NCBI GenBank assembly: GCA_036835125.1
Contig: DAITMO010000001.1
Span: 1 to 55,443 of the forward strand
Direction: 5' to 3'
Length of the DNA stretch: 55,443 nucleotides
Source: Patescibacteria group bacterium
GTDB lineage: Bacteria; Patescibacteriota; Microgenomatia; UBA8517
Part shown: positions 3,364 through 51,778 of the stretch, piece after piece
Layout of the letters: every line of letters starts with the position of its first letter
Position numbering within the stretch: position 1 is the first letter of the stretch
Position numbers and translations under genes: made by a program
Notes under the pieces: model-generated
The model's input: the letters and a program-made list of their open reading frames with translations, nothing else
Told to the model about the DNA's origin: nothing
Databases searched by the model: none

Positions 3364-3939
3364 ATGTCTAAAACTTCAAAGAAAAAGATAACTGCAAAAT
3401 ATCTTAAAAGTATTGGTGTCCCAGGAATTCTGATTGCAGGATTTATCACTGCTCACATGTTGGGGTGGGATGCAAAAGCTTTGGAAAGAATTAACAATTA
3501 TCACAAATTAAGGACCCCTTTTCTCAAAACAGGGATTGTAGAAGAAATATTAGATGATGATACATTTGTACTCAAAAATGGCGTAACGGTCCGTATGATA
3601 GGTATTAATACTCCTGAAGGTGAATCCTCGGGAAGTGCATATTTAAAGAAAAAAGTGCTCGGTAACAAAGTCTATTTAGAATATGACCGTTATCAAGATG
3701 ATAAATTTAGTAGGGTTCTTGCATGGGTATGGATAGACTGTGAGAAGTCTCCCACTTTCCTTCCTGCCGATTATATGCATAAAAGCAACAATGAAAGTAA
3801 TGAGGGTTTGGTGGAAAATCCTAAAGGATGCAAAAAAGGAAAACTAATAAATGAGGAACTAGTTATTCTTCAATATGCTGATCCTGTTACCTATAAAGAT
3901 AGAGGTGAACTAAAATACGAAAAACGTATAAATATATAG
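3364..3939 (+). CDS. Thermonuclease (SNase-like) family protein with N-terminal membrane anchor
   Basis: DDDTF..NG.TVRMIGINTPE, VYLEYD..QDDKFSRVLAWVW and LINEELV match the staphylococcal nuclease fold pattern. Confidence 0.8.
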   Translation: MSKTSKKKITAKYLKSIGVPGILIAGFITAHMLGWDAKALERINNYHKLRTPFLKTGIVEEILDDDTFVLKNGVTVRMIGINTPEGESSGSAYLKKKVLGNKVYLEYDRYQDDKFSRVLAWVWIDCEKSPTFLPADYMHKSNNESNEGLVENPKGCKKGKLINEELVILQYADPVTYKDRGELKYEKRINI

Positions 3940-4377: not shown

Positions 4378-6189
4378 TCAGCCAGCTCCTCCCCCACCTC
4401 CACCTCCACCACCTCCACCACCACCAGAAAAGCCACCACTACTGCCCACACCTGAGGCTCCATAGCTTCCAAATGAGGACGAAAGTGCACTAAAAGAAGA
4501 ATTAAAACTTGTCATTGCGCTTATACTGCTACCTTTTAAATAGAAAGCTGAATATATTGGTGAGTGTGATGAAGCAGTATTACTAAAATCGATTGGTAGT
4601 TCTGAAAGAGCTTTAGTAGATATTCCAAGCACACTACCATAAACCAAGTATTTTTCCCACAAAATAACTGAATCTATTGGGTATCTTTTTGTGACCGAAT
4701 AGTCTTTAAGCCATTTTTTGAAAGCTTTCCATCCTGAAAGTTCTACCCCACCCCATTTACTTTTCTTCCGCATTGAGGCAACCGAAACAAAAAACAAAAT
4801 GTCACATATAAATAAAATTACAAAACCAAAAGGCAATAAATTAAAAGCACTAGAAGCTAAATAAACAATGTTTATGATTATCCAAAAAATAACTTCAAAA
4901 ACACTTTTATCTTGCATATCCAGGCTTGTTTTTTCATAGAAGCCCAAATCTTCAAGACCTTTTTTGGCTTTTTCGGTATAACTTTTCCAAAACTCACGAG
5001 TTCTTGTGGGATTAAACCTTGGTATGTTTTTTATTTCATCAAAATCAATTTTTGATCCTACTTTTGCTTTACTACCGAAAAATAGAAAATCTAATAATTT
5101 ATTCTCAATAAAAGTAACTTTATCTTTATATGAATCTGAGTTTAATACTAAATAATATTTGTCCTTATTTCCAAAAAGTGTCTTTTTACCATTTTTTAAA
5201 TACTCTATCTTTAAAACCTTTTTTCTTACTAATTCCAAAATTGTTGCAACAACAGATTTTCCAGTTGGGACACCATTTAATATGGTTTCTACATATACTG
5301 GCTCCAAATCACTCGGTGGTTCATGAAGAGTACCTGCAAGGTTTGTTTCAGGAATAGGATCGTCTTTTCCAAACTTACGCCAACGAATAAACCAAATAAT
5401 CGCCCGATAAACAAACAAAATCAGGATTAACGATATAGCAATTGTCCAAAACACATTTCGTCTTTCTTCCTTTCCACTATATGATTTTTCTTCATTTAGA
5501 ATTGAATCAAGAGTTTCATTGCCCAAGATTGCATTAGTAAATGAAGTGTTTAGTGGGAAAACAATTCTGACTTCAAATAATGTTTCTGGTGGTAAATTGG
5601 AGGCACTAAAATCTACTTCATTATTTGTAACTATATAAATATTTCCATTTAGTGGTCCATGCCCAAATGCCCAAATTTCATCATCGGGTACAGAGTATGG
5701 TAGAAGTACCTTTGCAGTTACCTCCCCCACTCCTTTTTGCCACCCATCTCCAATTAGTTGCCAATAGAATTCTGAATTATCTTTGTTGTTAATAATTGCA
5801 TTATCAATTTTGTACTTGAGAGTAAATATTTTTTGCTCACTCAAAGCTTTGTAATACCATTTGACATAGAGTTTTCCCTCACTCTCTTCAATACTGAAGG
5901 TTTTTGGCAAGCTTGATGTATTTTTGGAATATTCCGTCTCTCCTTCCCATATCTCAAAATTGGAAATTTTTGATTTACCGGTATTAATCCATTCATCTGC
6001 CCACGAAAAACTCCCATCAAAATCATACGTTCTTATCTCAGTAACGTTTGCTGATCCATCATTGTTTATCTGTACATTAAAAGTGGCGGAAGAAATCGAG
6101 TAATCCTTGGCTAGGATACTAGCTGGAGAACTAACAAAAAAGAAAAGTAGACCAAAAAAAGAGAATAAAACCTTTAGACATATTTTCAT
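4378..6189 (-). CDS. DUF2207 family membrane protein
   Basis: Signal peptide, YSISSATFNVQINNDGSANVTE, EFYWQLIG..W, WEKYLVYG..LG, Gly-rich C-terminal tail GGFSGGGGGGGG. Confidence 0.85.
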   Translation of the reverse strand: MKICLKVLFSFFGLLFFFVSSPASILAKDYSISSATFNVQINNDGSANVTEIRTYDFDGSFSWADEWINTGKSKISNFEIWEGETEYSKNTSSLPKTFSIEESEGKLYVKWYYKALSEQKIFTLKYKIDNAIINNKDNSEFYWQLIGDGWQKGVGEVTAKVLLPYSVPDDEIWAFGHGPLNGNIYIVTNNEVDFSASNLPPETLFEVRIVFPLNTSFTNAILGNETLDSILNEEKSYSGKEERRNVFWTIAISLILILFVYRAIIWFIRWRKFGKDDPIPETNLAGTLHEPPSDLEPVYVETILNGVPTGKSVVATILELVRKKVLKIEYLKNGKKTLFGNKDKYYLVLNSDSYKDKVTFIENKLLDFLFFGSKAKVGSKIDFDEIKNIPRFNPTRTREFWKSYTEKAKKGLEDLGFYEKTSLDMQDKSVFEVIFWIIINIVYLASSAFNLLPFGFVILFICDILFFVSVASMRKKSKWGGVELSGWKAFKKWLKDYSVTKRYPIDSVILWEKYLVYGSVLGISTKALSELPIDFSNTASSHSPIYSAFYLKGSSISAMTSFNSSFSALSSSFGSYGASGVGSSGGFSGGGGGGGGGGGGGAG

Positions 6190-6275
6190 ACCAAATAAAG
6201 TATAGCAAAAGATTAATCTATCTTAAGGTGATTCTTTGGTTTCCCTAATACAATATATTTCTTTTAAGTAAACTA

Positions 6276-6446
6276 TTACAATTTAAGAAATTCCAAAAGT
6301 TTTATTACAACAAGAACTGGCCATACAATTGCTTTTAAAAATGCCAATACTCCTTGACCAAAAGTCTCCGCGTGACCAATAAAATAGATTGCTGCTCCTA
6401 TAAAGCCCATTCCATAGACAGCTCCACAACCTGCACTTTTCTTCAT
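6276..6446 (-). CDS. Small 56-aa membrane protein (not in the ORF track)
   Basis: MKKSAGCGAVYGMGFIGAAIYFIGHAETFGQGVLAFLKAIVWPVLVVIKLLEFLKL; two hydrophobic segments; AGGGGG SD-like motif upstream. Confidence 0.7.
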   Translation of the reverse strand: MKKSAGCGAVYGMGFIGAAIYFIGHAETFGQGVLAFLKAIVWPVLVVIKLLEFLKL

Positions 6447-6526
6447 AATGTCCACCCCCTATTCATAAGTACATGATAATAGAATCATTTTCTTATATCA
6501 AACGATAATGAAGATAATTTAATAAG

Positions 6527-8014
6527 TTATAAACCACCAAAGAAAATACTTTGATCAATATTTTTTCCGTTTGTAACTATAAAGGAGGGAGCCAATACAC
6601 CACTTAAAAATTTTAGAAATTGTAGACACTCAGGTGGTAAATCATAAATTGTTCTTGCCTTGACAACAGATTTTCCGTCCCAGCTTGGAAGTTTATGAAT
6701 CTCACCAACAACCTGATTCCAATGCCATTGATAAGGACGATAGGGTTCTAAATTACCATTGATTTTGGAGCGGTAGTTTTTAACTATCCTAATTTCATCA
6801 TCTTGATGGTTTGAATCAAGATGTGTCACAGCAATTGAATTGTATTTAGAAACTTTTCGAAGATGTCTCATTATTACCAAATCAATTGGATATATTCCTC
6901 TGTCTCTCCCTGTTGATCTACCTCTCTCATCATTTTCAGTTCTATACATAGATGCATGTTCGTCATCCATGCTGTAAGGTGGAACCCTTGAACCAACACT
7001 AGACATATACGGAGTTTTCAGAACGCTTATTCTTCTTGCTATATCTTCATATATAATCACACCTTCTGTAGAATCTGGTATTCCCACTCTTCCTATGGGC
7101 CTACTGGAAGTCACATCTGAATATACTCCATGATATGGATCAAGCCCCGCTCCTTGAGCTCCTTCAAAGGTAAAAGGAACTTTAAGTTGATTTTCCCATA
7201 CATCTTTATAAATTGGCATTGCATCAACCACAAAACTTAAAATTGCTTTTCTTGCTTCTTCGAGTTGATCAAGATATTCATTGATGCTTCCAACTCTCAC
7301 CCTATCTCTTTTACCTTCAAGATTTAATCTATTAACAGTCTCTGAGGATAATATATCAACTCCACCCATGAGATCGGCATAGAAATTGTATTGTTTGGCA
7401 AAAATCTCTCTCCAATTTGGAGAAACAAAATCTGAAACAGTTATTGCTCTTTTTTCAAGCCATGTAGAATAACCTTGTGCTACCCCACTTCCAGTTGCCC
7501 CATGTCCAACATCTAATTTTCTATTTGTAAAACTTTCGTATGCAGAATGGACGTCGGTTATTATTACAGCATTTGAATCGATAATAATTTTTCCAGGAAG
7601 CTTGTCAGTTCCAATCCTATTTTTTGTATAATTCATTTCTGTAACTAGATCATTAGGATGAATTAGCATTCCCCGTCCCAAAATTGCAGTAGCGCCTTCC
7701 TGAGTACAAGCAACGGGAAGTTGATGAAGAGAAATCCCTATACCATTCACAAATATTTCGTGCCCAGCATTTCTTGTTCCATTCCATCTATATGAATAAA
7801 GAATTCCTCTTGGAGATTTTCTTATTAATTTATCGTTAATTTCTTGTGTTACTCTCCCTTTTCCTGAGTCTCCAAACGAAGTGTCTTCAATACATACTGA
7901 ATTTGGACGAATTTGAGTGTCTGTATTTGGGGGTACAACAAAACTCTCGGGACTAGGTGGTGCCGAATTGTAAACCTCGTTTATAAAATCAGAGATTCTT
8001 CTTTCTGTCTTCAT
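6527..8014 (-). CDS. purA: Adenylosuccinate synthetase family protein, divergent
   Basis: FGDSGKG, NAGH, FEGAQG..LD..HG.Y..VTSS, STGRDR and THLD align with PurA motifs. Confidence 0.85.
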   Translation of the reverse strand: MKTERRISDFINEVYNSAPPSPESFVVPPNTDTQIRPNSVCIEDTSFGDSGKGRVTQEINDKLIRKSPRGILYSYRWNGTRNAGHEIFVNGIGISLHQLPVACTQEGATAILGRGMLIHPNDLVTEMNYTKNRIGTDKLPGKIIIDSNAVIITDVHSAYESFTNRKLDVGHGATGSGVAQGYSTWLEKRAITVSDFVSPNWREIFAKQYNFYADLMGGVDILSSETVNRLNLEGKRDRVRVGSINEYLDQLEEARKAILSFVVDAMPIYKDVWENQLKVPFTFEGAQGAGLDPYHGVYSDVTSSRPIGRVGIPDSTEGVIIYEDIARRISVLKTPYMSSVGSRVPPYSMDDEHASMYRTENDERGRSTGRDRGIYPIDLVIMRHLRKVSKYNSIAVTHLDSNHQDDEIRIVKNYRSKINGNLEPYRPYQWHWNQVVGEIHKLPSWDGKSVVKARTIYDLPPECLQFLKFLSGVLAPSFIVTNGKNIDQSIFFGGL

Positions 8015-18012: not shown

Positions 18013-18834
18013 TTATTTGAGAGCCTCATCAACTGCGGACTGCATATCAGAAAAGCTGTATGCACCTGCAAAATTGGTTGTGTTAACAAAGAAGCCTGGT
18101 GTTCCTTGGATTCCTAAAGATATCGCTAAATCCTGATCACTTCCAAGTCTTGCATCATATTTTCCACTATCAAGACAAGATTTCATCGCTCCTGTATCAA
18201 CCACACTCTTTAAGAAATTAGCCATATCTCCTGATTTTGTTGTGTCATTTCCAATAACCAATGTGGCATTTTTCCCTTGTGAATCAGCACCGTTTTGTAT
18301 GGCATAACCTGGATCACTCATCAAAAGAGATTTTGCTTCCCAGAACTTACCTTGTTCATTAGCACAGTAAAGAGCTTTCATTGCCATTTCTCCGTTTCCA
18401 TGTCCAGGATAATAAATATAAACAAATGAAGCTTTTCCTTCTTTTACAAGCTTTTCCATTTCGGCAACTGGAGGGTTATATGTTCCACCCTCACTTACAT
18501 ATTTGAATCTTGCTCCAACTGCTTCAGCCAGTTTTGAGTTATGTCCACCTGCAATGTGACAATATGGACAAGAAGGATCACTCATTTCAACAAAAATTAG
18601 TTTACTGTCTTTGTTTCCAAACTTGATTAAATCCTTATCAAACAATCCTTTTATTGTGTCTATAGAAACCTCTACCTGTGTTGTTTCTGGGGTTGTTGCA
18701 GTATTTGCTGTTCCCTTTTCTATATTTTTTACTTTTTGAAATAATGTGCCTGAGAAGAAGGCAAGACCAATTGAAATCGCGACTAAAGCTGGAATAAAAA
18801 ACTGTTTTATTCCTTCTGAAGATTTTTCTGACAT
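18013..18834 (-). CDS. Membrane-anchored DsbA family thiol-disulfide oxidoreductase
   Basis: TM anchor, SDPSCPYCH, GIQGTPGFFVN, GAY. Confidence 0.9.
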   Translation of the reverse strand: MSEKSSEGIKQFFIPALVAISIGLAFFSGTLFQKVKNIEKGTANTATTPETTQVEVSIDTIKGLFDKDLIKFGNKDSKLIFVEMSDPSCPYCHIAGGHNSKLAEAVGARFKYVSEGGTYNPPVAEMEKLVKEGKASFVYIYYPGHGNGEMAMKALYCANEQGKFWEAKSLLMSDPGYAIQNGADSQGKNATLVIGNDTTKSGDMANFLKSVVDTGAMKSCLDSGKYDARLGSDQDLAISLGIQGTPGFFVNTTNFAGAYSFSDMQSAVDEALK

Positions 18835-18921: not shown

Positions 18922-19884
18922 TTATTGAGATTCTTCCAAATACTTTAATGCTTCCATCGCTGCAATACATCCCATACCTGAGGCTACAATTGCTTGTTTG
19001 AAATGTTTATCCATCACATCCCCTGCTGCAAATATTCCTTTGATGTTTGTTCCACAATGCCAATTTGTTTGATCAATATATCCTTTTTCATCTGTTTTTA
19101 TTACATCTTTGAATGCTTCACTTGATGGTTTATGCCCTATTGCAATAAATAGTCCATCAAAAGGAACTTCTGAAGTTTCACCTGTTTCATTGTTTTTTAA
19201 AGTTAAGCTCTCAAGTTTATTCTCTCCATTGGCGTAAGTTACTTCCGTATTCCACATAATTTTGATCTTGGGATTATCTTTTATCTTTTCCTGCATGGCA
19301 GCTGACGCTCTAAACTCATTTCTTCTATGAATTATAGTTACCTCAGAAGCATATTTGGTCAAAACATGTGCTTCTTCCATTGCACTGTCCCCCCCTCCAA
19401 CTACTGCAACTTTTTTATCCTTGAAGAATGGTGCATCACATGGTGCACAAGAAGAGATACCACGTCCTATTAGTTCTTTTACTCCAGGTGCATCAAGCCA
19501 AAGAGTTTGGGCACCTGTTGCAATTATTATAGATTTGGCTTTATAAATTTTGCCTCCTGCTTTAATTTCAAATGGAGATTTTGAAGAATCAATGCCTTCA
19601 ACCTTGGTGGGCACAAATTCTGCTCCAAAACGTTCTGCTTGAGACTTCATGTTGTTCATGAGGTCAGCTCCCAATATCCCTTCAGGAAAACCAGGAAAAT
19701 TATCAACAGTTGAAGTCAGCATGAGTTGCCCTCCCCAGGATTCTCCTCCAAAAATAATTGTTGAGGCAGCTCCTCTAGTTGTATAGACAGCTGCTGTAAA
19801 TCCTGAAGGACCGGAACCTATTATAGCAACATCCCATGGACCTTCTTCTTTCTCTGGTTTTGATGCAAAAATTTGTTTATCCAT
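18922..19884 (-). CDS. trxB: Thioredoxin reductase; likely start 19884
   Basis: IIGSGPSG, CAPCD redox motif, VVGGGDSAMEEA, FAAGDV. Confidence 0.95.
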   Translation of the reverse strand: MDKQIFASKPEKEEGPWDVAIIGSGPSGFTAAVYTTRGAASTIIFGGESWGGQLMLTSTVDNFPGFPEGILGADLMNNMKSQAERFGAEFVPTKVEGIDSSKSPFEIKAGGKIYKAKSIIIATGAQTLWLDAPGVKELIGRGISSCAPCDAPFFKDKKVAVVGGGDSAMEEAHVLTKYASEVTIIHRRNEFRASAAMQEKIKDNPKIKIMWNTEVTYANGENKLESLTLKNNETGETSEVPFDGLFIAIGHKPSSEAFKDVIKTDEKGYIDQTNWHCGTNIKGIFAAGDVMDKHFKQAIVASGMGCIAAMEALKYLEESQ

Positions 19885-19975
19885 ATTCTTTATAGAAACA
19901 GTCAATCGGTCATCAGTCTATCAAAAAAATAATAAACCGAAAACCGAATGACAGTTTGCTCTAACTAAAAGAGCA

Positions 19976-20266
19976 TTACACCGTTGGAGGTGTTGTGGCT
20001 GGAGGCATTTGTCCTCCACCCATATCTCCCTGGTCTGGTGTTGGTTCAACTGGTGCTACTGGTGCTTCAGGAGCTGGCATTGCCGGCTCTGGTGTAGCAA
20101 CTGGCTCTGGCATAACTGGTGCAACTGGCTCTGGTGTTACCGGAGGAGTTGGCATTGTTGGTTCAGCTGGTACTCCTGCATTAGGATCGGTAGCTGGTGC
20201 TCCCATTCCTGGATCAACAGCAGGCATAGGATTCATTGTTGGGTCTTGTGTTTGATTTGGATCCAT
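19976..20266 (-). CDS. Pro-rich low-complexity protein
   Basis: PEPVA/PAP repeats; start overlaps the trxA stop (TAATG coupling). Confidence 0.7.
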   Translation of the reverse strand: MDPNQTQDPTMNPMPAVDPGMGAPATDPNAGVPAEPTMPTPPVTPEPVAPVMPEPVATPEPAMPAPEAPVAPVEPTPDQGDMGGGQMPPATTPPTV

Positions 20267-20592
20267 TAAGATGTCACCCCCTTTTTAATTAACTCTTCAA
20301 AAGCTTCTTTTCCCGAAAAACCTGATACTCTACCAATTTCCACTCCACCTTTAAATAAAATGGTTGTGGGAATAGACATCACTCCTAATTTTTGTGCGTT
20401 TACCTGATTCTCATCAATATTAAGTTTCACCATTATTACTTTATCTTTATAACTTTCGGAAAGTTCTTCCAAGACAGGTCCGGCCATTTTGCATGGACCA
20501 CACCATGGAGCCCAGAAATCAACTAATACTGGAGTTGTGTTTTGAAGTACTTTAGTCTCAAAATCTTGATCTGTTATATCAAAAGTGGCCAT
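20266..20592 (-). CDS. trxA: Thioredoxin
   Basis: VDFWAPWCGPC, MSIPT. Confidence 0.97.
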   Translation of the reverse strand: MATFDITDQDFETKVLQNTTPVLVDFWAPWCGPCKMAGPVLEELSESYKDKVIMVKLNIDENQVNAQKLGVMSIPTTILFKGGVEIGRVSGFSGKEAFEELIKKGVTS

Positions 20593-20640
20593 TTTCGTTA
20601 TGAACCACTATACCTTTTCACGAGGATCTGCGTCAATAGT

Positions 20641-20913
20641 CTAATTGATTTGTATCTTCTCCCCTTTCACTAAAGCTCCTGCAACTTTCTTTCTGGCTGA
20701 AGATAGAATCCTTGCAAAAGTAGGTTGAGATATGCTCATTTTCTCTGCAGCTTCTTTCTGAGACAAATCATCCATATCATGGTATTTTAAGGCAGAAAAT
20801 TCATCCTTACCCAATAAAACGCCAGACAGACCCTTTATAGAGGGTTCATCTGGCTTAAAACAACTACAAATTGGTTTACAACACGATTTACGTGGTAATT
20901 TTGGCCTGCCCAT
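20641..20913 (-). CDS. DUF134 (UPF0251) HTH protein; likely start 20913
   Basis: MGRPKLPR, CC..CSCFKP, DEFSALK..D...LSQKEAAEKMSISQPTFARIL.SARKKVA.AL. Confidence 0.9.
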   Translation of the reverse strand: MGRPKLPRKSCCKPICSCFKPDEPSIKGLSGVLLGKDEFSALKYHDMDDLSQKEAAEKMSISQPTFARILSSARKKVAGALVKGEKIQIN

Positions 20914-20926
20914 ATATCTTTTATTT

Positions 20927-21010
20927 CTACTCACAACCGCACTTACAATCTTTACCACACTTGCACTCCCCACCGCAACAAGAACACATATTTTTCTTAT
21001 TTTTTTTCAT
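20927..21010 (-). CDS. Putative metallothionein-like microprotein (27 aa, 8 Cys; not in the ORF track)
   Basis: MKKNKKNMCSCCGGECKCGKDCKCGCE*; SD AAGGAGGTGA 7 nt before the ATG; promoter upstream. Confidence 0.75.
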   Translation of the reverse strand: MKKNKKNMCSCCGGECKCGKDCKCGCE

Positions 21011-21038
21011 TAATCTCTCACCTCCTTTCCCTACATTT

Positions 21039-21070
21039 ATGAATATATATTCATTATTCCCTTTTGTCAA
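21039..21070 (-). promoter_or_regulatory. Promoter TTGACA-17-TATATT overlapped by the perfect palindrome ATGAATATATATTCAT (operator 1)
   Basis: -35 at 21065-21070, -10 at 21042-21047, palindrome at 21039-21054 with TGAA-n6-TTCA core. Confidence 0.75.
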
Positions 21071-21091
21071 TGTCTTTGTTAAAATCATCTT

Positions 21092-22093
21092 GTGGACATA
21101 TTTATGGCCTTCATAACTGGTTTAACTACAGGGGGAATTTCTTGTTTTGCTGTACAAGGTAGTCTTCTTATGTCTTCAATTATAAGAGAGAAAAATGAGA
21201 ATAGCTCGAAAAGATTAGTGGTTAATAGTTTAGTTTTATTTCTTTTAGCAAAACTATTAGCTTACACAATACTTGGACTATTGCTCGGAATTCTTGGAAG
21301 CTTACTTACAATACCTCCTAAAATACAAGGGTTGTTTCAAATAATAATAGGAGTATATTTATTGATTGTTACTCTAAACCTTATCAACATTCACCCCTTT
21401 TTTAAGAAATTTGTTATTACTCCCCCAAAATTTGTTTTTAGAATTTTAAAAAACCAGTCAAAGGATAATTCTGTTTTTACTCCCATATTTCTTGGTCTTT
21501 TAACAATTCTAATCCCTTGTGGAATTACTCAAGGAATGATGCTATTGGCAGTTTCTGCCGCTTCCCCACTTACATCCCTACTTTTGATGTTTTCTTTTAC
21601 TTTAGGGACAATACCAATCTTTTTTCTAATTGGTCTTGCCACAACTGAACTTCTTAATAAGAAAGCTTTTACTTATATTGCTGCATTAGTAGTAGGAATA
21701 TTAGCCATAATTTCTATCAACAGTGGCCAGATCTTAAGAGGGTCAGCTCATACAATTCAAAATTATTGGAGAGTTGCCTTTGATTATAATAAAGCTTTAG
21801 AAAAAACTGCTCCAATCATTGACGGTTATCAAGAAGTTACTATTACGGTAAAGCCGCATGGATATGAGGCTTCGGCAAATATACTAAAGATTGATGTTCC
21901 TGTAAAACTTACATTGGTCACAAACTCAATTGCAAGTTGTTCTAGAGCATTCACAATACCCGATTACAAGATATCTAAAGTTCTACCTGTAACTGGTGTG
22001 GAAACAATTATTTTTACTCCTGAAAAACTAGGGAACATAACTTATACATGTAGCATGGGTATGTATTCAGGCTATTTTGATATTATCAACTAA
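21092..22093 (+). CDS. TauE/SafE (DsbD_2-like) membrane protein fused to a C-terminal cupredoxin-like domain
   Basis: GLTTGGISC.A..G, KLLAYTILG, LIPCG..Q, F.LGTIP; C-terminal SC..F.IP....YTCSMGMY. Confidence 0.85.
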   Translation: MDIFMAFITGLTTGGISCFAVQGSLLMSSIIREKNENSSKRLVVNSLVLFLLAKLLAYTILGLLLGILGSLLTIPPKIQGLFQIIIGVYLLIVTLNLINIHPFFKKFVITPPKFVFRILKNQSKDNSVFTPIFLGLLTILIPCGITQGMMLLAVSAASPLTSLLLMFSFTLGTIPIFFLIGLATTELLNKKAFTYIAALVVGILAIISINSGQILRGSAHTIQNYWRVAFDYNKALEKTAPIIDGYQEVTITVKPHGYEASANILKIDVPVKLTLVTNSIASCSRAFTIPDYKISKVLPVTGVETIIFTPEKLGNITYTCSMGMYSGYFDIIN

Positions 22094-22094
22094 T

Positions 22095-22301
22095 ATGACA
22101 AAGAATTATAAAATTAATGGCATTGATTGTCCAAATTGTGCCAAGATGATTGAGGTTGAACTTGAAGATTGTGGTATTAAATGTTCCTGTTCGTTTGAAA
22201 AAGAGATGCTTAAGGTTGAGGGTAGTCATAATATAAAAAAGATTAACAGTATTATTTCTAAACTGGGATGTAACATATCAATCCCTAAAGAAGTGATTTA
22301 A
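22095..22301 (+). CDS. Heavy-metal-associated (HMA) domain protein, copper-chaperone-like
   Basis: YKINGIDCPNCAKMIE. Confidence 0.8.
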   Translation: MTKNYKINGIDCPNCAKMIEVELEDCGIKCSCSFEKEMLKVEGSHNIKKINSIISKLGCNISIPKEVI

Positions 22302-22320
22302 TCTATATCAATTCTCTCTC

Positions 22321-22351
22321 TTTACAATATCTTATTTCGAATATATATTCA
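22321..22351 (+). promoter_or_regulatory. Promoter TTTACA-17-TATATT overlapped by operator 2 (GAATATATATTCA)
   Basis: Same 13-nt core as operator 1, in the same position over the -10 box. Confidence 0.7.
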
Positions 22352-22389
22352 TTATATATCAGTTTTCTTGACATGATAAAATAATAAGC

Positions 22390-22788
22390 ATGAATCATTT
22401 AAAGGGTAACAAATTTACAGTTATTACTTTATTAGCGACCATTATTATCATCATTGGTGGGGTTTTATTGTTTTCAAATAGCTCTAAAGATGCTTCTGAA
22501 CCAACCCCAAACATTCCTTCTGATTCATATGTTTATTTCTATGGTCAAGGTTGTACTCATTGCAAAAATGTAGAAGAATTTATGAATAGTTGGGAGAAAA
22601 AAGATTCAATCAATCTTACAAAATTGGAGGTTTGGTACAACAAAAATAATGCTAATATATTTGCGAGTGAAGCGGAAAAATGCGGGGTGTCTAAAAATGA
22701 TTTAGCAGTTCCCTTTTTGGTTACTCCCGATGGAAAATGTATGATGGGAGACACTCCGATTATTGATCATTTTAAAAATTTACAATGA
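22390..22788 (+). CDS. Membrane-anchored glutaredoxin/thioredoxin-like protein
   Basis: TM anchor, FYGQGCTHCKNV, cis-Pro motif AVPFL, second Cys pair. Confidence 0.8.
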   Translation: MNHLKGNKFTVITLLATIIIIIGGVLLFSNSSKDASEPTPNIPSDSYVYFYGQGCTHCKNVEEFMNSWEKKDSINLTKLEVWYNKNNANIFASEAEKCGVSKNDLAVPFLVTPDGKCMMGDTPIIDHFKNLQ

Positions 22789-23321
22789 ATATTTTTACAA
22801 AAAAAATTACAGTCTTTTTCTCAACTCTATTTTCATTATTCACTGTTTTTTACTTAGTATTTGCCAACAAAATTTCTGCCATGTGTCCTGTATGTACAAT
22901 TGCAGTTGGTGCAGGACTTGGACTTTCAAGATGGCTTGGAGTTGATGATGTAATCTCAGGTATATGGATAGGTGCGGTTTTACTATCTTCTGCGCTCTGG
23001 TTCTATAATTGGCTTGCGAAAAAATATTCTAAACTTGGTTCTAGGTATTTTCTTGCCCTTTCAATAATTGTAACTTTTGGTATTGTTCTCATTCCTCTAT
23101 TAAAGACAGGAGTAATTGGACACCCATTTAATACAATTCTTGGGATAGATAAGCTTGTTTTTGGAAATATATTAGGAGCTTTAACCTTTACTTTAAGCAT
23201 TTGGGCAGACAAAAAGGTGAGAAAAATAAAAGGTAAACAGCTTTTTCAATTTCAAAAAGTTGTTTTTCCTGTAGTTTTACTTATACTAGTTAGTGCTGTG
23301 ATGTTTTTCATAACTAAATAA
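22785..23321 (+). CDS. Hypothetical membrane protein with CPVC motif
   Basis: Signal-like N-terminus, ISAMCPVCTIAVGAGLGLSRWLGVDD, about 4 TM segments; ATGA coupling. Confidence 0.75.
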   Translation: MNIFTKKITVFFSTLFSLFTVFYLVFANKISAMCPVCTIAVGAGLGLSRWLGVDDVISGIWIGAVLLSSALWFYNWLAKKYSKLGSRYFLALSIIVTFGIVLIPLLKTGVIGHPFNTILGIDKLVFGNILGALTFTLSIWADKKVRKIKGKQLFQFQKVVFPVVLLILVSAVMFFITK

Positions 23322-23830
23322 TGGCCATAAAAACATACAAAGATTTATTAAAAAGAGTTGAGAACTTCAAGATTGAGCAAAGCTTGGATTTATCTTCTGG
23401 TGAAGATCTTTCGATTGGAATAATGAACTTAATTTCTATTGAAGAACATCTCTTCTATACATATGGAAAACTCAAAAAACATAAATATTTAGATCTTTTA
23501 AATGAAGTTAGGCTCATGAGAACTGAGCTTTTAAAGGGTATTATCAAAGACTATGAAGGAGAGGTTTGGTGTATAAGTAAACACCTCTTGGCGGCTAGTA
23601 TGAGAGTTATGGAGGTTGGAACAAAGGAACTTAAAAAAGGAAACAAGAAGAAAGCTGAAGAACTGTTCCAAAAATCATACAAACTATATACTCTATTTTG
23701 GGGTTTGAACCTTTCTGAACAATCAGAATCAGGCAAAAAAGTTGACACAACAAGCTTAAGAGGTGGATCAACTGTATTCTCAAAACTAAACAGTATCATT
23801 CAAAAATCGCTTGATTGCTGCAGAGAATAA
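23321..23830 (+). CDS. Hypothetical helical protein with His/Cys motifs
   Basis: IEEH, WCISKH, C-terminal DCCRE; TAATG coupling. Confidence 0.7.
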   Translation: MAIKTYKDLLKRVENFKIEQSLDLSSGEDLSIGIMNLISIEEHLFYTYGKLKKHKYLDLLNEVRLMRTELLKGIIKDYEGEVWCISKHLLAASMRVMEVGTKELKKGNKKKAEELFQKSYKLYTLFWGLNLSEQSESGKKVDTTSLRGGSTVFSKLNSIIQKSLDCCRE

Positions 23831-29670: not shown

Positions 29671-31374
29671 TTAGGATTTTTGAATTTTATGAATGGCTTT
29701 TAATTCATCAATATCTGTTACATTGGAAAATCCTCTATCATCTCTAAAGCGAACTAATCTGGGAAATCTTAAGGCTAGGCCTGCAGTATGTTTGGGGCTA
29801 ACTGTTATCTCATCTGCTGCAAGCTCAACTACAACTTTGGGAAGTGCCCAAAAGTCTGGTTCTAGATCTTTATCTACCACATATTCTTTTGGTTTTTCTT
29901 TTGAGACAACTTCTTTTAACCTTCTCTTTAATTCTCTAAACTGATCATCTGTTAGTCCAGTTCCTACTTTGGTAACAGTTTTGAAAGTATCTTTATCTTT
30001 CACTCCTGCTAAAAATTGACCTATTCCAAACCCTACTCTTTTACCTTTCCCTGCAGTGTAACCCATGACAACGCAGTCAATAGTATCTGATAGCTTACCC
30101 CTTGTTCCCTCTACTTCTTTCATCTTTACCCAATTCCAACCAGTACGACCTGAAACATAACCTGCACTAATTCTTTTTGCTATTATTCCTTCAAGCCCCA
30201 TCTTTAGATATTTTTTATGAAAGGTTCTTATTACCTCAGGATCTTTTGTAATTGTATTTTCATCTACTCTTAAGAGTTTTCCTGAGATAATCGTTTTTTC
30301 AAGTTCTTTTCTTCTTTCAATATATGGTTTATCCATGAAACTCTTTCCATTCTTTAAAAGAATATCAAAAACTTGAAACTGAAGAGGAATATCGTTTGCA
30401 GTTTGCCCAACATCATGTTTTCTTCTCCTTTGGATTGTTTTTTGGAAGTCTAAAAATATTTGTCTTTTCTCATCAATCCCAATTCCTTCAGAGTCCAAAA
30501 TCACTTCATCTGCTTTTATGAATTTTCCCACTTCTTTTAGTTCTGGAAAAGTATCTAGGGAAATTGAATTCATGTTTCTTGTAAATATTTTTGTTTCCTC
30601 TCCTTTTTTATAATGGATAAAAATCCTTAAACCATCAAATTTTGGTTCAACTGATACTTCCCCCATCTTTTTAATCATGTCGGTAGGACTATTGAGGCGT
30701 GCAGCAAGCATGGGAACAACAGGAACTCCAATTTCAGGTTTGGCAGATTCTAATTTGTTTTCTTTTACAAGTTTTGCAATGTACCCGATGTCTGGCCTTA
30801 TGTTGTATGCTTCTTCAATTTTACCAGCGGGAACCTGGGTAACTTTCGAGAGTGCATCAATTACTGTTTTTTCTGAAAAACCTAAACGAAGTCTTCCTAC
30901 TGGGATTCTGGCAATAAATCTGGCAGAAAGTGGGTCTATTACTTTTAGAATATCTGCCATTTTTGAGATCTTTCTATCTTGACTTCCTTCTCCCCCATCT
31001 TTGGCAATATTTAACAACTTTTCGTAGATTTCAATTGTGCTTAGAACTTTTATTTTATTATCATTCTTATTCTTGTTTATGTTTAGTTCTTCCGCAGTGT
31101 TACCAATATCTCCCAGTTTTTTATAAAGTGTTCTTACTTCATCAGTAGGCACTCCATATGCTTCAGAAAGAACTCTAATCATCATCTTTTCTGCCAAGTT
31201 TAAGATTATCCCTTCGTAATTTGGAGCTAGTATTCCGAGAGATAAATAAACAATTTTGTCTATTTCAGAAGCTTCAGATTTCTCAAAAAGTTGAGATAAT
31301 ATTTTGGTAATTTCAAGCCTGGAGGGAGTCTTTTCTAGTCTATCTAAATAGAGAGAAAATTCTGACAAATTCAT
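29671..31374 (-). CDS. lig: ATP-dependent DNA ligase with N-terminal DNA-binding domain
   Basis: EPKFDG adenylation motif, ILDSE, EGIIAK, WVKMK, KVGTG, LRFPR. Confidence 0.95.
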   Translation of the reverse strand: MNLSEFSLYLDRLEKTPSRLEITKILSQLFEKSEASEIDKIVYLSLGILAPNYEGIILNLAEKMMIRVLSEAYGVPTDEVRTLYKKLGDIGNTAEELNINKNKNDNKIKVLSTIEIYEKLLNIAKDGGEGSQDRKISKMADILKVIDPLSARFIARIPVGRLRLGFSEKTVIDALSKVTQVPAGKIEEAYNIRPDIGYIAKLVKENKLESAKPEIGVPVVPMLAARLNSPTDMIKKMGEVSVEPKFDGLRIFIHYKKGEETKIFTRNMNSISLDTFPELKEVGKFIKADEVILDSEGIGIDEKRQIFLDFQKTIQRRRKHDVGQTANDIPLQFQVFDILLKNGKSFMDKPYIERRKELEKTIISGKLLRVDENTITKDPEVIRTFHKKYLKMGLEGIIAKRISAGYVSGRTGWNWVKMKEVEGTRGKLSDTIDCVVMGYTAGKGKRVGFGIGQFLAGVKDKDTFKTVTKVGTGLTDDQFRELKRRLKEVVSKEKPKEYVVDKDLEPDFWALPKVVVELAADEITVSPKHTAGLALRFPRLVRFRDDRGFSNVTDIDELKAIHKIQKS

Positions 31375-42409: not shown

Positions 42410-42418
42410 ATCTTCGTG

Positions 42419-42487
42419 TTGCGGGGTTGGGAGTTGCGCCCAACCTGTGAGATTATGAGCCTCACGTGCACTGTACACTACCCCGCA
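42419..42487 (-). tRNA. Non-canonical tRNA (CAT), initiator-like acceptor stem, degenerate D- and T-loops
   Basis: TGCGGGG/CCCCGCA acceptor; TGAGG-CTCATAA-TCTCA anticodon arm; D-loop ACAGT without GG; T-loop CGCAACT; extended -10 TGcTATAAT upstream. Confidence 0.65.
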
Positions 42488-42547
42488 TATAGAACTAACG
42501 ACTGCAATTATAGCACAAGGGTGCGTAAAATGGTAAAATACGGCAAT

Positions 42548-42621
42548 GTCAAGGTAGCTCAGTTGGTTAGAGCACGGCAATCATAACGCTGAGGTCGAGG
42601 GTTCGAATCCCTCCCTTGACA
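42548..42621 (+). tRNA. tRNA (CAT), elongator Met or Ile2; CCA not encoded
   Basis: GTCAAGG/CCTTGAC acceptor, GAGGG-TTCGAAT-CCCTC T-arm, anticodon loop ATCATAA; extended -10 TGgTAAAAT upstream. Confidence 0.9.
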
Positions 42622-42623
42622 CA

Positions 42624-44309: not shown

Positions 44310-44507
44310 GTGGACCCAATAGAGTCGAACTATCCCTTTGGTTCTTATATCACGTTTCGCAATGCACAATATAAAAGAACTGTTGTGGGCCTGAATGGAG
44401 TCGGACCATTATCTCGAATTTATAAGATTCGCGTCCTAACCGCTGAACGACAGGCCCATCTTTGTTACAAGACTCCCACCCTAACAAAATGGAAAAGGTT
44501 CCAATGA
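44310..44507 (+). CDS. Possible hypothetical protein (65 aa)
   Basis: GTG start just after the receiver gene; no motif. Confidence 0.3.
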   Translation: MDPIESNYPFGSYITFRNAQYKRTVVGLNGVGPLSRIYKIRVLTAERQAHLCYKTPTLTKWKRFQ

Positions 44508-48907: not shown

Positions 48908-51292
48908 TTATTTGTGAATTATTTTTGTTGCTTCAGATTTTTTACTGTCTCCTGTTGGTACAAATTCAATTTCACAAGCTCCTGCACTACATGCAACTTC
49001 TTGTGCTGCTTTTGTATAATCTTCCTCTTCATATCTCCAAAGCTTAGAAAAGTCTATATCAGGGAATTTTGAATTAAGCTCTTCATATTTTTCCTTTGTA
49101 ATTTCCTCATATGGCATCTGAGCATATTTAGCATCACTTGCAGGAAGGAAGCTCATTCCCCCAATCATATCTTTATGTTCCCAAACCCATTTAACAAGGT
49201 CTAATATTTCGTTTGGTTGATAGGTAATCGTGACGCTTGGATTGTGTTCTGTCCAGAAGATTTTACTCTTTAACCAATATTCACACTGTTCAATTGCAGA
49301 TCTTTCTTTCCTCGTAATTGCACTTTCTGGGGATTTAACCGGAAAATGAACGACCCAGGTGTTGGCTGTATCTTCAGTTTGCCCGTTTTCAGGATCCATT
49401 GGAACTCCTGCATCCTTTAATACTTTGAAAAGGGGTGTGAATGCTCCAACTCTAACATTTCTGACATAATATGGGGCCCATCTTGTATGAATTCCGCTAG
49501 AACAATTGAAAAGTTGAGATGAGTTTCCAGATGGTTTTACACAGGTCACTGCAGCTGCAGGATTAATTCCTAGTTTTTTGGCATATATTCTATTTGTTTC
49601 AACTGCAACCTGCCTTAATTTAGCCATTATGGAAGGATCTTGAACTGCTGGACAATCCATCTGCCCATTTATATCAACTCCCAAAAGTCTTTCATCCTCA
49701 CAATTTTTCTTCCAAATGGGTCTTAGACCTGGGAAATTGGTTGCCATTGCCTGGATTGTTCCTATGATTGCGGCAACTTGTACTTTATCTTTGAGGGTTT
49801 CATATGTATCGTCTTTTCTGGCTATGGCGATACTCAAATTACAAAATTCGTATGGTCTTAGATTGATTTCTCCACAAGGGTTACTTCCAAAATCTGCTTC
49901 CTTTCTTCTTTCGGGTCTAAATTTATTACTCCCTGGTCTATTAAAGATTCCAGGTTCCCCTCTTTGAGTTTCATGCATATCAAGCATTAATTTTATCCAT
50001 TCTTCCTGAGAAAGACCGCGGTCAGGAATTACTACAGAATTATTTGCATTCCATCTTTGCCAATTGTCTCTCTCAAAGTCTCCGTCTTTTGCATGCCTCA
50101 TTTCTGCATCTTCCCAATCAAAAAGTGAAATCATGGCAGTTCTTCTTACTCCTCCTGAAACTGCAGCGTAGCCAACCATACACATAATGTCGTGGGCATC
50201 AATTGGACGAAGGAAACTTCCTTGTCTAGCTAAAATTCTTTCCCTGACAAAATCAAGCATTACTCTTAAAGGTTCTGGACCCGATGCGCGTCCTCCTTTA
50301 ATTTTTAAAATTGACCCTGCTGGTCTTAATTTTGAAAAATCAAAGGTAATATCTTTTCCATCAAACCAGGTATTCATTCCAATTCTTAAAGAATCTTCCC
50401 ATCCTTCAGTTGTATCTGGAATTACATATGTTTTTACTTTTCCAGCTGTTTGTCTTTTTATTCTTGGAAGTTTTTCAACATACTTACTCTCTACAGAGAA
50501 TCCTACTCCACAACCACTCATAGAGATGAGAAGTGCTTCACAAAAAGCATCTATGCTATCTGCTGGTAAATATGAACAATTATAAATACTGATGTTTTGT
50601 CGTCTCGCACTTTCTCCAGCTGAAGCAAGAAGTCTCATAGAGGTCATTGCCTTCATTTCAAGCATAAACTTTCTTATTTTTGTGTAGGTTTTTTGATCCA
50701 ACTTATTCTTTGATATCTCTTTAAGATAACTTACTGCTCTATCAATTGTTTCTGTCCAAGTTTCACGCCTTCCTAAGTCATAGTTAAATCTTGAGTATTT
50801 ATCAAAAAATTGAAACTTCTGAAGCTGAGTTGGAAAATATTTATCTGATTCTTCAAATGCCTTTTTAACATTTGTTGGGATTGGTCTAACTTCTCTTAAC
50901 TTCGCATGTTCTGCTCTATAAAGAATATAGTGTTTGGCTGCTTCAAACTCTTCAGAAGATTGCAAAACAAGCTCAACCATGTCCTGAATATTTTCAACTG
51001 TAGGTTTTTCGAATCTTACTGAAACTAGATTAACTACTCTTTGGGTAAGGTCGATTATTGATGTTTTAGGTGTTGTTTTTAGTGATTTAAAACACTTTTC
51101 AATTGCAACCAAAATTTTTTGTGGATTAAATTCTTCCTCACTACCATCTCTTTTTGTAATTACTTTTGGCCACGGGAGAGTAGCTTTCCCATTTACATGT
51201 TCCTCTTTAACTACACCATTTTTTTGTGGACGACCTTTCTTTTTTTTCAATCCTCCTACTATTTGTTGTAATAATAATTTTTCTTCTGCCAT
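48908..51292 (-). CDS. nrdJ: Class II adenosylcobalamin-dependent ribonucleotide reductase with N-terminal ATP-cone
   Basis: ITKRDG ATP-cone, YNCSY, GCGVGFSV, GGVRR.A, NPCGEI, CNLS, TCVKPSG, C-terminal CSAGACE. Confidence 0.93.
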   Translation of the reverse strand: MAEEKLLLQQIVGGLKKKKGRPQKNGVVKEEHVNGKATLPWPKVITKRDGSEEEFNPQKILVAIEKCFKSLKTTPKTSIIDLTQRVVNLVSVRFEKPTVENIQDMVELVLQSSEEFEAAKHYILYRAEHAKLREVRPIPTNVKKAFEESDKYFPTQLQKFQFFDKYSRFNYDLGRRETWTETIDRAVSYLKEISKNKLDQKTYTKIRKFMLEMKAMTSMRLLASAGESARRQNISIYNCSYLPADSIDAFCEALLISMSGCGVGFSVESKYVEKLPRIKRQTAGKVKTYVIPDTTEGWEDSLRIGMNTWFDGKDITFDFSKLRPAGSILKIKGGRASGPEPLRVMLDFVRERILARQGSFLRPIDAHDIMCMVGYAAVSGGVRRTAMISLFDWEDAEMRHAKDGDFERDNWQRWNANNSVVIPDRGLSQEEWIKLMLDMHETQRGEPGIFNRPGSNKFRPERRKEADFGSNPCGEINLRPYEFCNLSIAIARKDDTYETLKDKVQVAAIIGTIQAMATNFPGLRPIWKKNCEDERLLGVDINGQMDCPAVQDPSIMAKLRQVAVETNRIYAKKLGINPAAAVTCVKPSGNSSQLFNCSSGIHTRWAPYYVRNVRVGAFTPLFKVLKDAGVPMDPENGQTEDTANTWVVHFPVKSPESAITRKERSAIEQCEYWLKSKIFWTEHNPSVTITYQPNEILDLVKWVWEHKDMIGGMSFLPASDAKYAQMPYEEITKEKYEELNSKFPDIDFSKLWRYEEEDYTKAAQEVACSAGACEIEFVPTGDSKKSEATKIIHK

Positions 51293-51316
51293 ATTTTTAT
51301 TTTTTTGAAAACAAAC

Positions 51317-51754
51317 TTATTTATCAATCAATTTTTCAAAGTCACTTAAATCTTCAAACTCTAAATAAACACTAGCAAACCGGAGCCAGGCTACTTTATC
51401 TACTTTTTTCAGTTTTTTCAAGACTGCATTTCCTATGCTTCTTGCTGGTACTTCCTGTTTATCGCTTCTTAACATCTCCATTTCTACTTGATCTACTATT
51501 TCATCTACCAGCTCAAGAGAAACCGGACGCTTTTCTATTGCTCTTAGTATCCCCTTTTTAATCTTTTCTTTATCAAACACTTCTCTGTTACCATTTTTCT
51601 TTACTACCCAAAGAAAACTTTTTTTGACTTGCTCTATTGTAGTAAACCTTTTGTTGCATTTCCCACACTCTCTTCTTCTTCTTATAGAGCCATCATCCAT
51701 TGATCTACTTTCCAAAACACTTGTTTCAACAGCTCTACAAAAAGGACACTTCAT
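51317..51754 (-). CDS. nrdR: Transcriptional repressor NrdR; likely start 51754
   Basis: MKCPFC, IRRRRECGKC..RFTT.E, ATP-cone, VAWLRFASVY..F. Confidence 0.96.
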   Translation of the reverse strand: MKCPFCRAVETSVLESRSMDDGSIRRRRECGKCNKRFTTIEQVKKSFLWVVKKNGNREVFDKEKIKKGILRAIEKRPVSLELVDEIVDQVEMEMLRSDKQEVPARSIGNAVLKKLKKVDKVAWLRFASVYLEFEDLSDFEKLIDK

Positions 51755-51778
51755 ATGTTTCACGCATGTAAAGAAATT

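Follow-up and report, generated by a model that had tools for sequence, protein, structure and literature searches.

Two palindromes of the type TGAA-N6-TTCA lie on a 55,443-nt contig of a Patescibacteria group bacterium (lineage Microgenomatia, UBA8517; GenBank assembly GCA_036835125.1, contig DAITMO010000001.1), the whole of which we call the window, and they raise the question of which protein reads them and which genes are controlled through them. A preliminary description of this DNA had placed the two copies at 21039-21054 and 22338-22352, each over the -10 box of a promoter with 17-nt spacing, and had proposed a metal-derepressed regulon run either by a distant ArsR/SmtB metal sensor or by the DUF134 protein encoded close by. 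We conclude, with a probability of about 0.78, that both palindromes are predicted operators of this DUF134 protein, whose gene lies at 20641-20913, and that the pairing of protein and site is conserved in bacteria and archaea.

Both palindromes are centred on the -10 box of a promoter

The two sequences were found as described. Site 1 reads ATGAATATATATTCAT and is indeed a perfect palindrome, 16 nt long with no mismatch and with the core TGAATATATATTCA at 21040-21053, and site 2 reads cGAATATATATTCAT / CGAATATATATTCAT, in which T is replaced by C at core position 1, the single mismatch to the palindrome; neither element has a strand. A consensus promoter scan also bore out the 17-nt spacing. 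The site-1 promoter, TTGACA-17-TATATT on the minus strand (21070 to 21042), matches the consensus at 11 of 12 positions, with its -35 box at 21065-21070 and its -10 box TATATT at 21042-21047, inside site 1. The site-2 promoter, TTTACA-17-TATATT on the plus strand (22321 to 22349), matches at 10 of 12, with the -35 box TTTACA at 22321-22326 and the -10 box TATATT at 22344-22349, in the centre of site 2. Both promoters are of the sigma-70 type, and at both sites the TATATT hexamer is itself the centre of the palindrome. Transcription from the site-1 promoter runs leftwards, a direction absent from the preliminary description, towards an open reading frame (ORF) for a 27-amino-acid Cys-rich peptide and then the DUF134 gene.

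To judge these matches against chance, we used a first-order Markov model of the window (about 35% GC) on both strands. The exact core TGAATA-NN-TATTCA has an expectation of 0.016 in the window, the 14-mer shared by the two sites, GAATATATATTCAT, is expected 0.0015 times per window and was observed three times (site 1 being counted on both strands), and for the shared 17-mer, GAATATATATTCATTAT, the expectation falls to 4e-5. Chance origin of both sites is excluded. Matches with two mismatches (including those at 9751, 22056, 22786 and 35276) numbered six against 8.5 expected, which is the chance level, and none of them falls at a promoter; with at most one mismatch, no further site was found in the window beyond sites 1 and 2, and the window thus holds no other members of the regulon.

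Phylogenetic footprinting, one of the checks that the preliminary description had suggested, was carried out on nine intergenic regions, those of the window and of eight related contigs whose DUF134 proteins are 60-74% identical and which all keep the window's divergent arrangement of DUF134 and a DsbD_2 gene. Only TTGACAA, ATGAATATATATTCATAA and the Shine-Dalgarno sequence GGnGGTGA are invariant across the nine aligned regions, the remainder varying with insertions and deletions, and the operator was thus unchanged in all nine orthologous loci. In nine of nine, the slot between operator and DUF134 is filled by a peptide of 27-46 amino acids with 8-12 Cys and CxCGKDCxC repeats. By its gene content and its relatives the organism belongs to the Patescibacteria, that is to the candidate phyla radiation, and one close DUF134 homologue carries the name Saccharimonadales.

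The palindrome accompanies DUF134 in bacteria and archaea

For bacteria, a scan of 185,579 species genomes that started from DUF134 gave 80 loci, mostly from Patescibacteria and Dependentiae, and the addition of two unique contigs (L001 and L004) made a set of 82 loci and 590 kb. The exact core TGAATA-NN-TATTCA occurs at 69 of the 82, one in each, against 0.18 expected in 590 kb, and a site with at most one mismatch is carried by 73 of 76 loci when six contigs that are cut off upstream are excluded. The operator lies 200-400 bp upstream of DUF134, in front of its operon, and the gene between the two is in most bacterial loci DUF5320 (PF17253). From the sequence logo, the motif extends to an 11-2-11 palindrome, TATwA-TGAATA-nn-TATTCA-TwATA. 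At loci of the mainstream candidate phyla radiation (CPR), TTGACA stands 21-23 nt upstream and the operator starts at the final base of the -10 box, the left outer arm being the -10 box and the core covering the transcription start. In the subgroup to which the window belongs, the operator is about 10 bp nearer to the -35 box than in the mainstream, so that the -10 box comes to lie inside the palindrome.

The archaeal scan from DUF134 was limited to the best 80 loci, 72 of which were counted; 48 have an exact site and a further eight a site with one mismatch (56/72). Here the operator begins 14-15 nt after the B recognition element/TATA box, in the interval between TATA box and transcription start. 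The operator therefore covers in each case an element contacted by RNA polymerase: the -10 box in the window, the -10 box and transcription start in mainstream CPR, and the TATA-to-start interval in archaea. A second, weaker palindrome is often seen 24 ± 1 bp downstream at archaeal DUF134 promoters (L190, L192, L203, L222 and L231), and likewise in L235, L257, L265, L135 and L152, with a spacing of 38 bp in L129; the paired archaeal palindromes suggest that two dimers may bind cooperatively.

The reverse scan, in which the pattern TATWATGAATANNTATTCATWATA was run against the same GTDB species genomes and 8-kb loci were inspected, returned 97 stretches, with DUF134 inside the locus in 62 of them and nearly always directly downstream. 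The hosts include Patescibacteria, Dependentiae, DPANN and Asgard archaea, Methanobacterium, Bathyarchaeota, Thermoplasmatales and Deltaproteobacteria, among others. When the sites were pooled, the operon next to the site was found to contain DUF134 at 107 of 167 unique sites and an ArsR gene at only two. Such cis-linkage in Bacteria and Archaea is a classic signature of autoregulation, and site 1, which has the form TGAnnA-NN-TnnTCA on the core promoter of a DUF134 operon, conforms to the autoregulated operator that we propose for this family. Matches in ordinary bacteria that have no DUF134 (beside genes for patatin, metallophosphoesterase, or TetR with HlyD) are heterogeneous and were treated as background. 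Locus L071 (3480-3660) is one of the only two in which arsR stands beside a DUF134 operon: arsR is divergent from DUF5320-DUF134, and a separate TGAACTCATATTCA overlaps its start codon (3530-3543), 97 bp from the DUF134-type TGAATACGTATTCA (3627), so that two operator types may lie side by side.

The half-site covaries with the recognition helix of DUF134

The window's DUF134 (UPF0251) protein has 90 amino acids, is encoded on the minus strand and matches PF02001 at E 1e-18, with a Sigma70_r4_2 signature; its N-terminal arm contains CCKPICSC and its recognition helix reads ISQPTFARIL. The AlphaFold model consists of a disordered N-terminal arm and a three-helix helix-turn-helix (HTH), with a predicted local distance difference test score (pLDDT) of 83. 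Its nearest solved structures are region 4 of extracytoplasmic function sigma factors and the DNA-binding domain of Bacillus subtilis DeoR (PDB 7bhy, 8r7y), the latter superposing in Foldseek with a root mean square deviation of 0.7 Å and 35% identity and being also the best sequence match in the PDB (E 7e-4). The modelled fold is thus sigma-70-region-4-like, not winged helix. No structure of a DUF134 protein was found in the PDB, where matches were at the level of the HTH. The DeoR DNA-binding domain binds as a dimer to ATTGAACAAAATTTCAAT (operator half OL18), which is itself a TGAA-N6-TTCA sequence, and R39 in its ISRPTVSRLL helix touches the G of TGAA (PMC11229326). In our alignment the Arg that corresponds to R39 is invariant in DUF134, and the DeoR operator and the DUF134 site have the same half-site start and the same spacing. 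DUF134 shares with the SorC family an HTH of sigma-70-region-4 type that is predicted to recognise TGAA-N6-TTCA, as it does in DeoR; the sugar-phosphate effector domain of that family was not found in the 90-residue protein, which has nothing after its HTH, and only residues 47-76 align with the NCBIfam DeoR model, scoring 20 bits where the cut-off is 420.

A profile search of the whole library gave at least 4,450 DUF134 clusters at 50% identity, and in the best 150 representatives of these the recognition helix is SQ(P/S)TFxR or SR(Q/P/A)TFxR. All DUF134 proteins beside TGAATA-type sites have the SQ-type helix. We compared 80 loci with SRQTFGR (68 usable), which come from Deltaproteobacteria, Planctomycetota, Spirochaetota and Acidobacteriota. 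In the 120 bp before the ATG, none of the 68 has a TGAATA-type site, even when two mismatches are allowed. De novo, their commonest inverted repeat was AGCAT|ATGCT, that is TGAGCA-TA-TGCTCA. Within 1.2 kb upstream, TGAGCA-NN-TGCTCA is present exactly at seven of the 68 loci, with at most one mismatch at 21 and with at most two at 42, and at 38 of 68 it lies, with at most two mismatches, within 120 bp of the ATG. Of 22 such sites at one mismatch or fewer, 20 stand between TTGACA and TAAT and precede the DUF134 ATG by 27-46 bp. The SQ and SRQ sites share the 6-2-6 architecture and the tta...taat flanks and differ at half-site positions 4-5, where AT becomes GC, and in 1.74 Mb of SQPTF-type loci the TGAGCA form hardly occurs. 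The window, with its ISQPTFARIL helix and TGAATA-type sites, pairs helix and half-site in the same way. Since the half-site covaries with the recognition helix, the comparison indicates that DUF134 itself is the likely reader of the site, and the assignment draws on three independent lines, namely cis-linkage in both domains of life, homology to the DeoR HTH, and covariation of helix and half-site.

Weighing DUF134 against other readers

Several observations count against DUF134 as the reader of both sites. About one third of the motif-first matches adjoin unrelated genes and reflect background or other regulators. Five Asgard loci (Promethearchaeota; L093, L112, L124, L149 and L153) have the palindrome with no DUF134 within 8 kb. 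This 24-bp palindrome, mostly with AATT at its centre, precedes DUF5320 with a DtxR-like gene, Mrp/NBP35 with NifU and radical SAM genes, and also FeoA and NifX-like plus CDF genes, and the best 80 loci from the archaeal scan included no Asgard DUF134; in these genomes the DUF134 gene may lie at another place, or the site may have a different reader. The loci of the covariation sets were fetched with search patterns in which the recognition helix is fixed, and the SRQTFGR genomes have a higher GC content (50%), yet their flanking tta/taat and central TA stay AT-rich. Site 2 is without a counterpart in the eight related genomes and specific to the window's genome, so its putative function is deduced from its own sequence and promoter geometry. 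Finally, the Cys-rich peptides gave no significant match to a Pfam metallothionein (best E 0.34-0.40).

The alternative that survives best is that another trans-acting metal regulator, such as Fur, DtxR or one of unknown type, reads the palindrome and that DUF134 is a conserved target or co-factor. It would accommodate the Asgard loci, with their DtxR-like, NifU/Mrp, FeoA and CDF genes, as well as the Fur genes inside three DUF134 operons. Against it, the window ORFs yielded no homologue of Fur, DtxR, ArsR or DUF5320, the site is linked far more strongly to DUF134, and in both domains of life, and the covariation with the DUF134 helix is not explained by a trans-acting Fur; moreover, the DeoR-type HTH offers a precedent for TGAA-N6-TTCA, while the motif is unlike the DtxR box and unlike the Fur box, a 7-1-7 repeat of TGATAAT-N-ATTATCA. 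We regard this alternative as improbable.

The odds are longer still for the candidate that the preliminary description had put beside DUF134, in which the palindromes are 12-2-12 operators of a distant ArsR/SmtB sensor and DUF134 and the Cys-rich peptide are mere members of its regulon, as in SmtB-smtA. The starting point of that proposal is sound: TGAA-N6-TTCA is the core of ArsR/SmtB operators, as in the 12-2-12 example AATACCTGAACA-GA-TGTTCAAGTATT, and the AT-rich outer arms add to the likeness (PMC8790569). The first gene under site 1 is metallothionein-like, and in L071 arsR is divergent from DUF5320-DUF134. Nevertheless, no ArsR gene was found among the window ORFs, as had been noted, and ArsR adjoins two of the 167 pooled sites while DUF134 adjoins 107; a trans-acting ArsR does not explain the covariation of the half-site with the DUF134 helix; the conserved core is TGAATA and the ArsR-type core TGAACA; and in L071 the element at the arsR start codon is distinct from the DUF134-type site. 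Of the two candidate regulators, DUF134 was thus strengthened by cis-linkage, covariation and HTH homology, and ArsR/SmtB lost ground by its rarity in the 167 operons, by its fold and by the TGAATA core.

That there is no regulator, and that the palindromes reflect AT-rich promoter sequence (-10 or TATA-like) or chance low-complexity repeats, is very unlikely. A genome of about 35% GC, outer arms (TATwAT) that coincide with the -10 consensus and the chance-level number of two-mismatch matches in the window would agree with it, but the Markov expectations, shuffles and the 69 cores observed against 0.18 led us to reject chance and AT-rich background. In addition, the G and C of TGAATA/TATTCA do not fall on promoter-consensus positions (their place is in the spacer or past the -10 box), and yet they are conserved at 73 of the 76 bacterial DUF134 promoters, in nine of nine orthologous loci and also downstream of archaeal TATA boxes. 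Least probable of all is a role in RNA, as a hairpin or attenuator in the 5'-untranslated region: in mainstream CPR the operator begins with the final base of the -10 box and hence is partly transcribed, but the window palindrome is centred on the -10 box and precedes the expected start of transcription almost entirely, folding gave only weak predicted hairpins (-2.8 and -5.5 kcal/mol, z-scores of -0.5 and +0.4 against shuffled sequence), and no Rfam family matched either site.

A proposed mechanism and the genes under the two sites

In the mechanism that we propose for DUF134, a dimer would set its two HTH units on the half-sites TGAATA and TATTCA (6-2-6, equal to TGAA-N6-TTCA) and, once bound, would exclude RNA polymerase by occluding the TATATT -10 box, because palindrome centre and -10 hexamer coincide. 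Physical binding by DUF134, its stoichiometry as a dimer, repression as the outcome and the kind of signal are points that we infer.

At site 1 this would amount to autorepression of the Cys-rich peptide and DUF134, and probably also to repression of the thioredoxin, TrxB and DsbA genes, all on the minus strand. The metallothionein-like 27-residue peptide, MKKNKKNMCSCCGGECKCGKDCKCGCE (20927-21010, 8 Cys), is preceded by the strong Shine-Dalgarno sequence GGAGGTGA at 21018-21025, 7 nt before its ATG, and followed after 13 nt by DUF134. Downstream of DUF134 and in the same direction come a thioredoxin recognised by Pfam (20266-20592), in a synteny kept in relatives; a Pro-rich ORF of 96 amino acids without a Pfam match (19976-20266); a thioredoxin reductase-like flavoprotein (18922-19905; Pyr_redox_2, E 1e-51); and a DsbA-like thiol:disulfide oxidoreductase (18013-18834; Thioredoxin_4/DSBA). 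The thioredoxin gene may have a promoter of its own, TTGACG-18-TATAGT at 20636 to 20607. The Pro-rich ORF keeps its position between trx and trxB in relatives, where it has 64-88 amino acids. DUF134 and trx are separated in L004/L005 by an insertion (5279-6673) that comprises a gene for ornithine carbamoyltransferase and a toxin-antitoxin pair, ParE/Phd, and DUF134 remains with the operator, apart from the thioredoxin genes.

At site 2 the proposed target is a plus-strand operon of three genes, which would be repressed in the same manner. Its first gene encodes a membrane-anchored thioredoxin/glutaredoxin-like protein with a CTHC motif (22390-22788), followed by a membrane protein with CPVC in its first helix (22785-23321) and a 169-residue protein (23321-23830), the last two without a Pfam match and each belonging to a family present in six motif-adjacent operons. 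Homologues of the CTHC protein (E 6e-38) are found in motif-controlled operons of 23 other loci, and in two loci (L010 and L017) genes of the site-2 type are divergent from a single DUF134 operator. The CGAATA mismatch of site 2 has a mirror image, TATTCG, at the true DUF134 promoters of L056 and L073.

Divergent from site 1 on the plus strand is a gene for a membrane protein with DsbD_2 and Cupredoxin_1 domains in Pfam (21092-22093), an arrangement present in eight of eight related loci. We infer a promoter for it from the extended -10 box TGtTAAAAT, read from the sequence at 21077-21085, with TGTTAGAAT at the same place in L001, L183 and L184. The DsbD_2-cupredoxin mRNA is probably leaderless, since this box stands only 6 nt before the GTG start codon at 21092. 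A -10 box is seen 6-8 nt before the start codon of this gene in the window, L001, L183, L004, L006 and L186, the start being GTG in the window. Control of the window's DsbD_2 gene by site 1 is uncertain, because, counted from the start of the probably leaderless mRNA, the centre of the operator is at about -45.5. In L004, L006 and L186 the DsbD_2 ATG is 4 nt from the palindrome, and there the mirrored TATATT would be the -10 box of DsbD_2, a single operator serving both directions.

The nature of the signal

The proposed signal for derepression is thiolate-based and would be a thiophilic metal or else thiol oxidation/Fe-S status; its sensor would be the Cys-rich N-terminal arm CCKPxCxC, the small Cys-rich partner whose gene stands between operator and DUF134, or both. 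A thiolate metal or redox signal for the DUF134 switch comes close to an even chance in our estimation without quite reaching it, and a metal- or thiol-redox switch is our best guess because of the partner modules of DUF134 and the gene content next to the motif. The metal-derepressed regulon of the preliminary description is plausible, given its metallothionein-like first gene, the Cys-rich arm, the HMA and cupredoxin genes nearby and the ZIP, CDF and Feo genes elsewhere; the thioredoxin, TrxB and DsbA content fits thiol oxidation or Fe-S status equally well.

The 27-residue peptide, which may be the sensor partner of DUF134, has the size and composition of a metallothionein, with about 30% Cys in CxC/CxxC arrays and no aromatic residues, and the CCKPxCxC cluster in the otherwise Cys-poor arm is confined to the window's subgroup. 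In archaea, the C-terminus of DUF134 carries a Gly/Arg-rich linker and a Cys-rich ribbon, CxCxxCG...PCxxxKCPKCG. The ribbon occurs in some CPR as a stand-alone ORF (CxCPxCG...PCxxxxCPxC; L011:3729-3935 and L069:3788-3955) in the interval between operator and DUF134, and the archaeal Gly/Arg-rich stretch that joins ribbon and DUF134 resembles the N-terminus of DUF5320; taken together, these form a putative gene-fusion link between DUF134 and its small upstream partner. In some bacteria a Nitro_FeMo-Co (NifX-like) domain is fused to DUF134. Operons beside the motif in the various lineages include YibE/F, thioredoxins, ZIP, CDF, FeoA/B, ferritin-like proteins, NifU, Mrp/NBP35, Fur and DtxR-like genes, and in CPR the commonest companions of DUF5320-DUF134 are YibE/F-like membrane proteins (PF07907) and a 398-residue glutaredoxin-like plus membrane protein. 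The YibE/F-like and glutaredoxin-like companions are present at 16-18 DUF134 loci, for example at L011:916-2046.

Comparison with known regulators and wider meaning

Judged by sequence, the predicted DUF134-operator pair would behave like a classical autoregulated repressor-operator pair, and its sites resemble the ArsR/SmtB 12-2-12 boxes. Shared with the ArsR/SmtB systems (SmtB-smtA, ZiaR, CzrA and AzuR-nmtA) are an imperfect TGAA...TTCA palindrome with AT-rich arms at or close to the promoter, the proposed logic of repression and, as a target, a gene for a Cys-rich peptide of metallothionein type (PMC8790569). The window palindrome is a repeat of the 12-2-12 type in 11-2-11 form, with a core that is one base per arm off (TGAATA against TGAACA). 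In contrast to ArsR, a winged-helix HTH_5 protein, DUF134 has a 90-residue, sigma-4-like HTH, and an HTH_5 regulator beside the target was found neither among the window ORFs nor, apart from the two cases, in the 167 site-adjacent operons. B. subtilis DeoR, of the SorC family, is the closest solved HTH relative and likewise binds TGAA-N6-TTCA as a dimer, with the G-contacting Arg conserved, but it has 313 amino acids with a SorC sugar-phosphate-binding domain and its tetramer occupies a 39-bp operator between -60 and -21, whereas DUF134 consists of an N-terminal arm and an HTH (or has Cys-rich or NifX-like additions) with its operator on the core promoter.

The CopY Cys motif is CxCx4CxC and the cop box TACAnnTGTA, and RsrA-SigR controls trxBA. 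Repressors of this kind resemble DUF134 in their small size, short Cys cluster, metal-handling or thioredoxin targets and an operator over the promoter; fold and box differ, and the Cys cluster of DUF134 is N-terminal and present in the window's subgroup only. The Fur, Zur and DtxR regulons overlap in gene content with the DUF134-linked operons of other lineages (ZIP, CDF, FeoAB, ferritin-like, NifU/Mrp and NifX-like genes) and also have operators on core promoters, but their protein families and motifs both differ from those of DUF134, whose metal response is only proposed.

We found no published function or operator for DUF134/UPF0251, DUF5320, COG1342 or the motif in the searchable literature, outside which such work may exist; Pfam and NCBIfam give no function for DUF134 or DUF5320, and the closest NCBIfam model is titled 'hypothetical protein'. 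What is new is an uncharacterised regulator family with its operator, the outline of a regulon and a recognition rule. DUF134 and DUF5320 are widespread, and the window supplies a cognate operator, an autoregulatory architecture, a correspondence of helix to half-site and a first regulon, which in outline comprises thioredoxin-like and DsbD-like envelope proteins, YibE/F, ZIP, CDF, Feo, NifX-like and Mrp proteins and Cys-rich peptides. For uncultivated CPR, DPANN and Dependentiae, in which almost no regulator-operator pairs are known, it provides an entry point to the control of transcription, and it is a rare example of a single operator conserved over the bacterial-archaeal divide. The 24-bp pattern is specific enough to flag DUF134-controlled promoters in genome annotation.

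A broader reading joins four parts, and we hold it, as a whole, tentatively and at somewhat less than even odds. DUF134 would be a regulator family spanning Bacteria and Archaea whose 6-2-6 operator is built into the core promoter, at the -10 box in Bacteria and between TATA box and transcription start in Archaea; its code would be SQP in the helix for TGAATA and SRQ for TGAGCA; its role would be that of a principal metal, Fe-S and thiol regulator in the reduced genomes of CPR, Dependentiae and DPANN; and its sensor would be a detachable Cys-rich or DUF5320 partner, separate in CPR and fused in archaea, whose place is taken in some bacteria by a NifX-like domain. Small reduced genomes can be expected to have fewer standard regulators.

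Other features of the window

Between the DsbD_2-cupredoxin gene and site 2 lies a plus-strand gene for a small HMA-like protein with CPNC (22095-22301), its match to PF00403 (E 6e-4) being weaker than the Pfam cut-off, with HMA called in relatives too. No P1B-type ATPase, which would point to a copper-efflux context, was found in the window. NrdR (51317-51763), of the zinc-ribbon type and without an HTH, is the second DNA-binding protein of the window and adjoins a ribonucleotide reductase of class II (B12-type) that has an ATP cone, the two together occupying 48908-51763. NrdR boxes are tandem 16-bp boxes upstream of ribonucleotide reductase genes; we considered and rejected them as an explanation of the palindromes, which are about 27 kb from the ribonucleotide reductase and NrdR genes, are single and not tandem, and across genomes go with DUF134 and not with nrd genes.

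Elsewhere in the window, an ATP-dependent DNA ligase is encoded at 29671-31374. On the minus strand at 1-2966, a 16S match spans 1853 nt and covers only model positions 9-873, with LAGLIDADG endonuclease ORFs in or beside it (1272-2114 and 182-772), and the 16S gene thus appears to be intron-interrupted, as is common in CPR bacteria. A tRNA-Ile gene with the anticodon UAU, unusual for bacteria, is located at 44385-44457, and two divergent tRNA-Met genes occupy 42418-42622.

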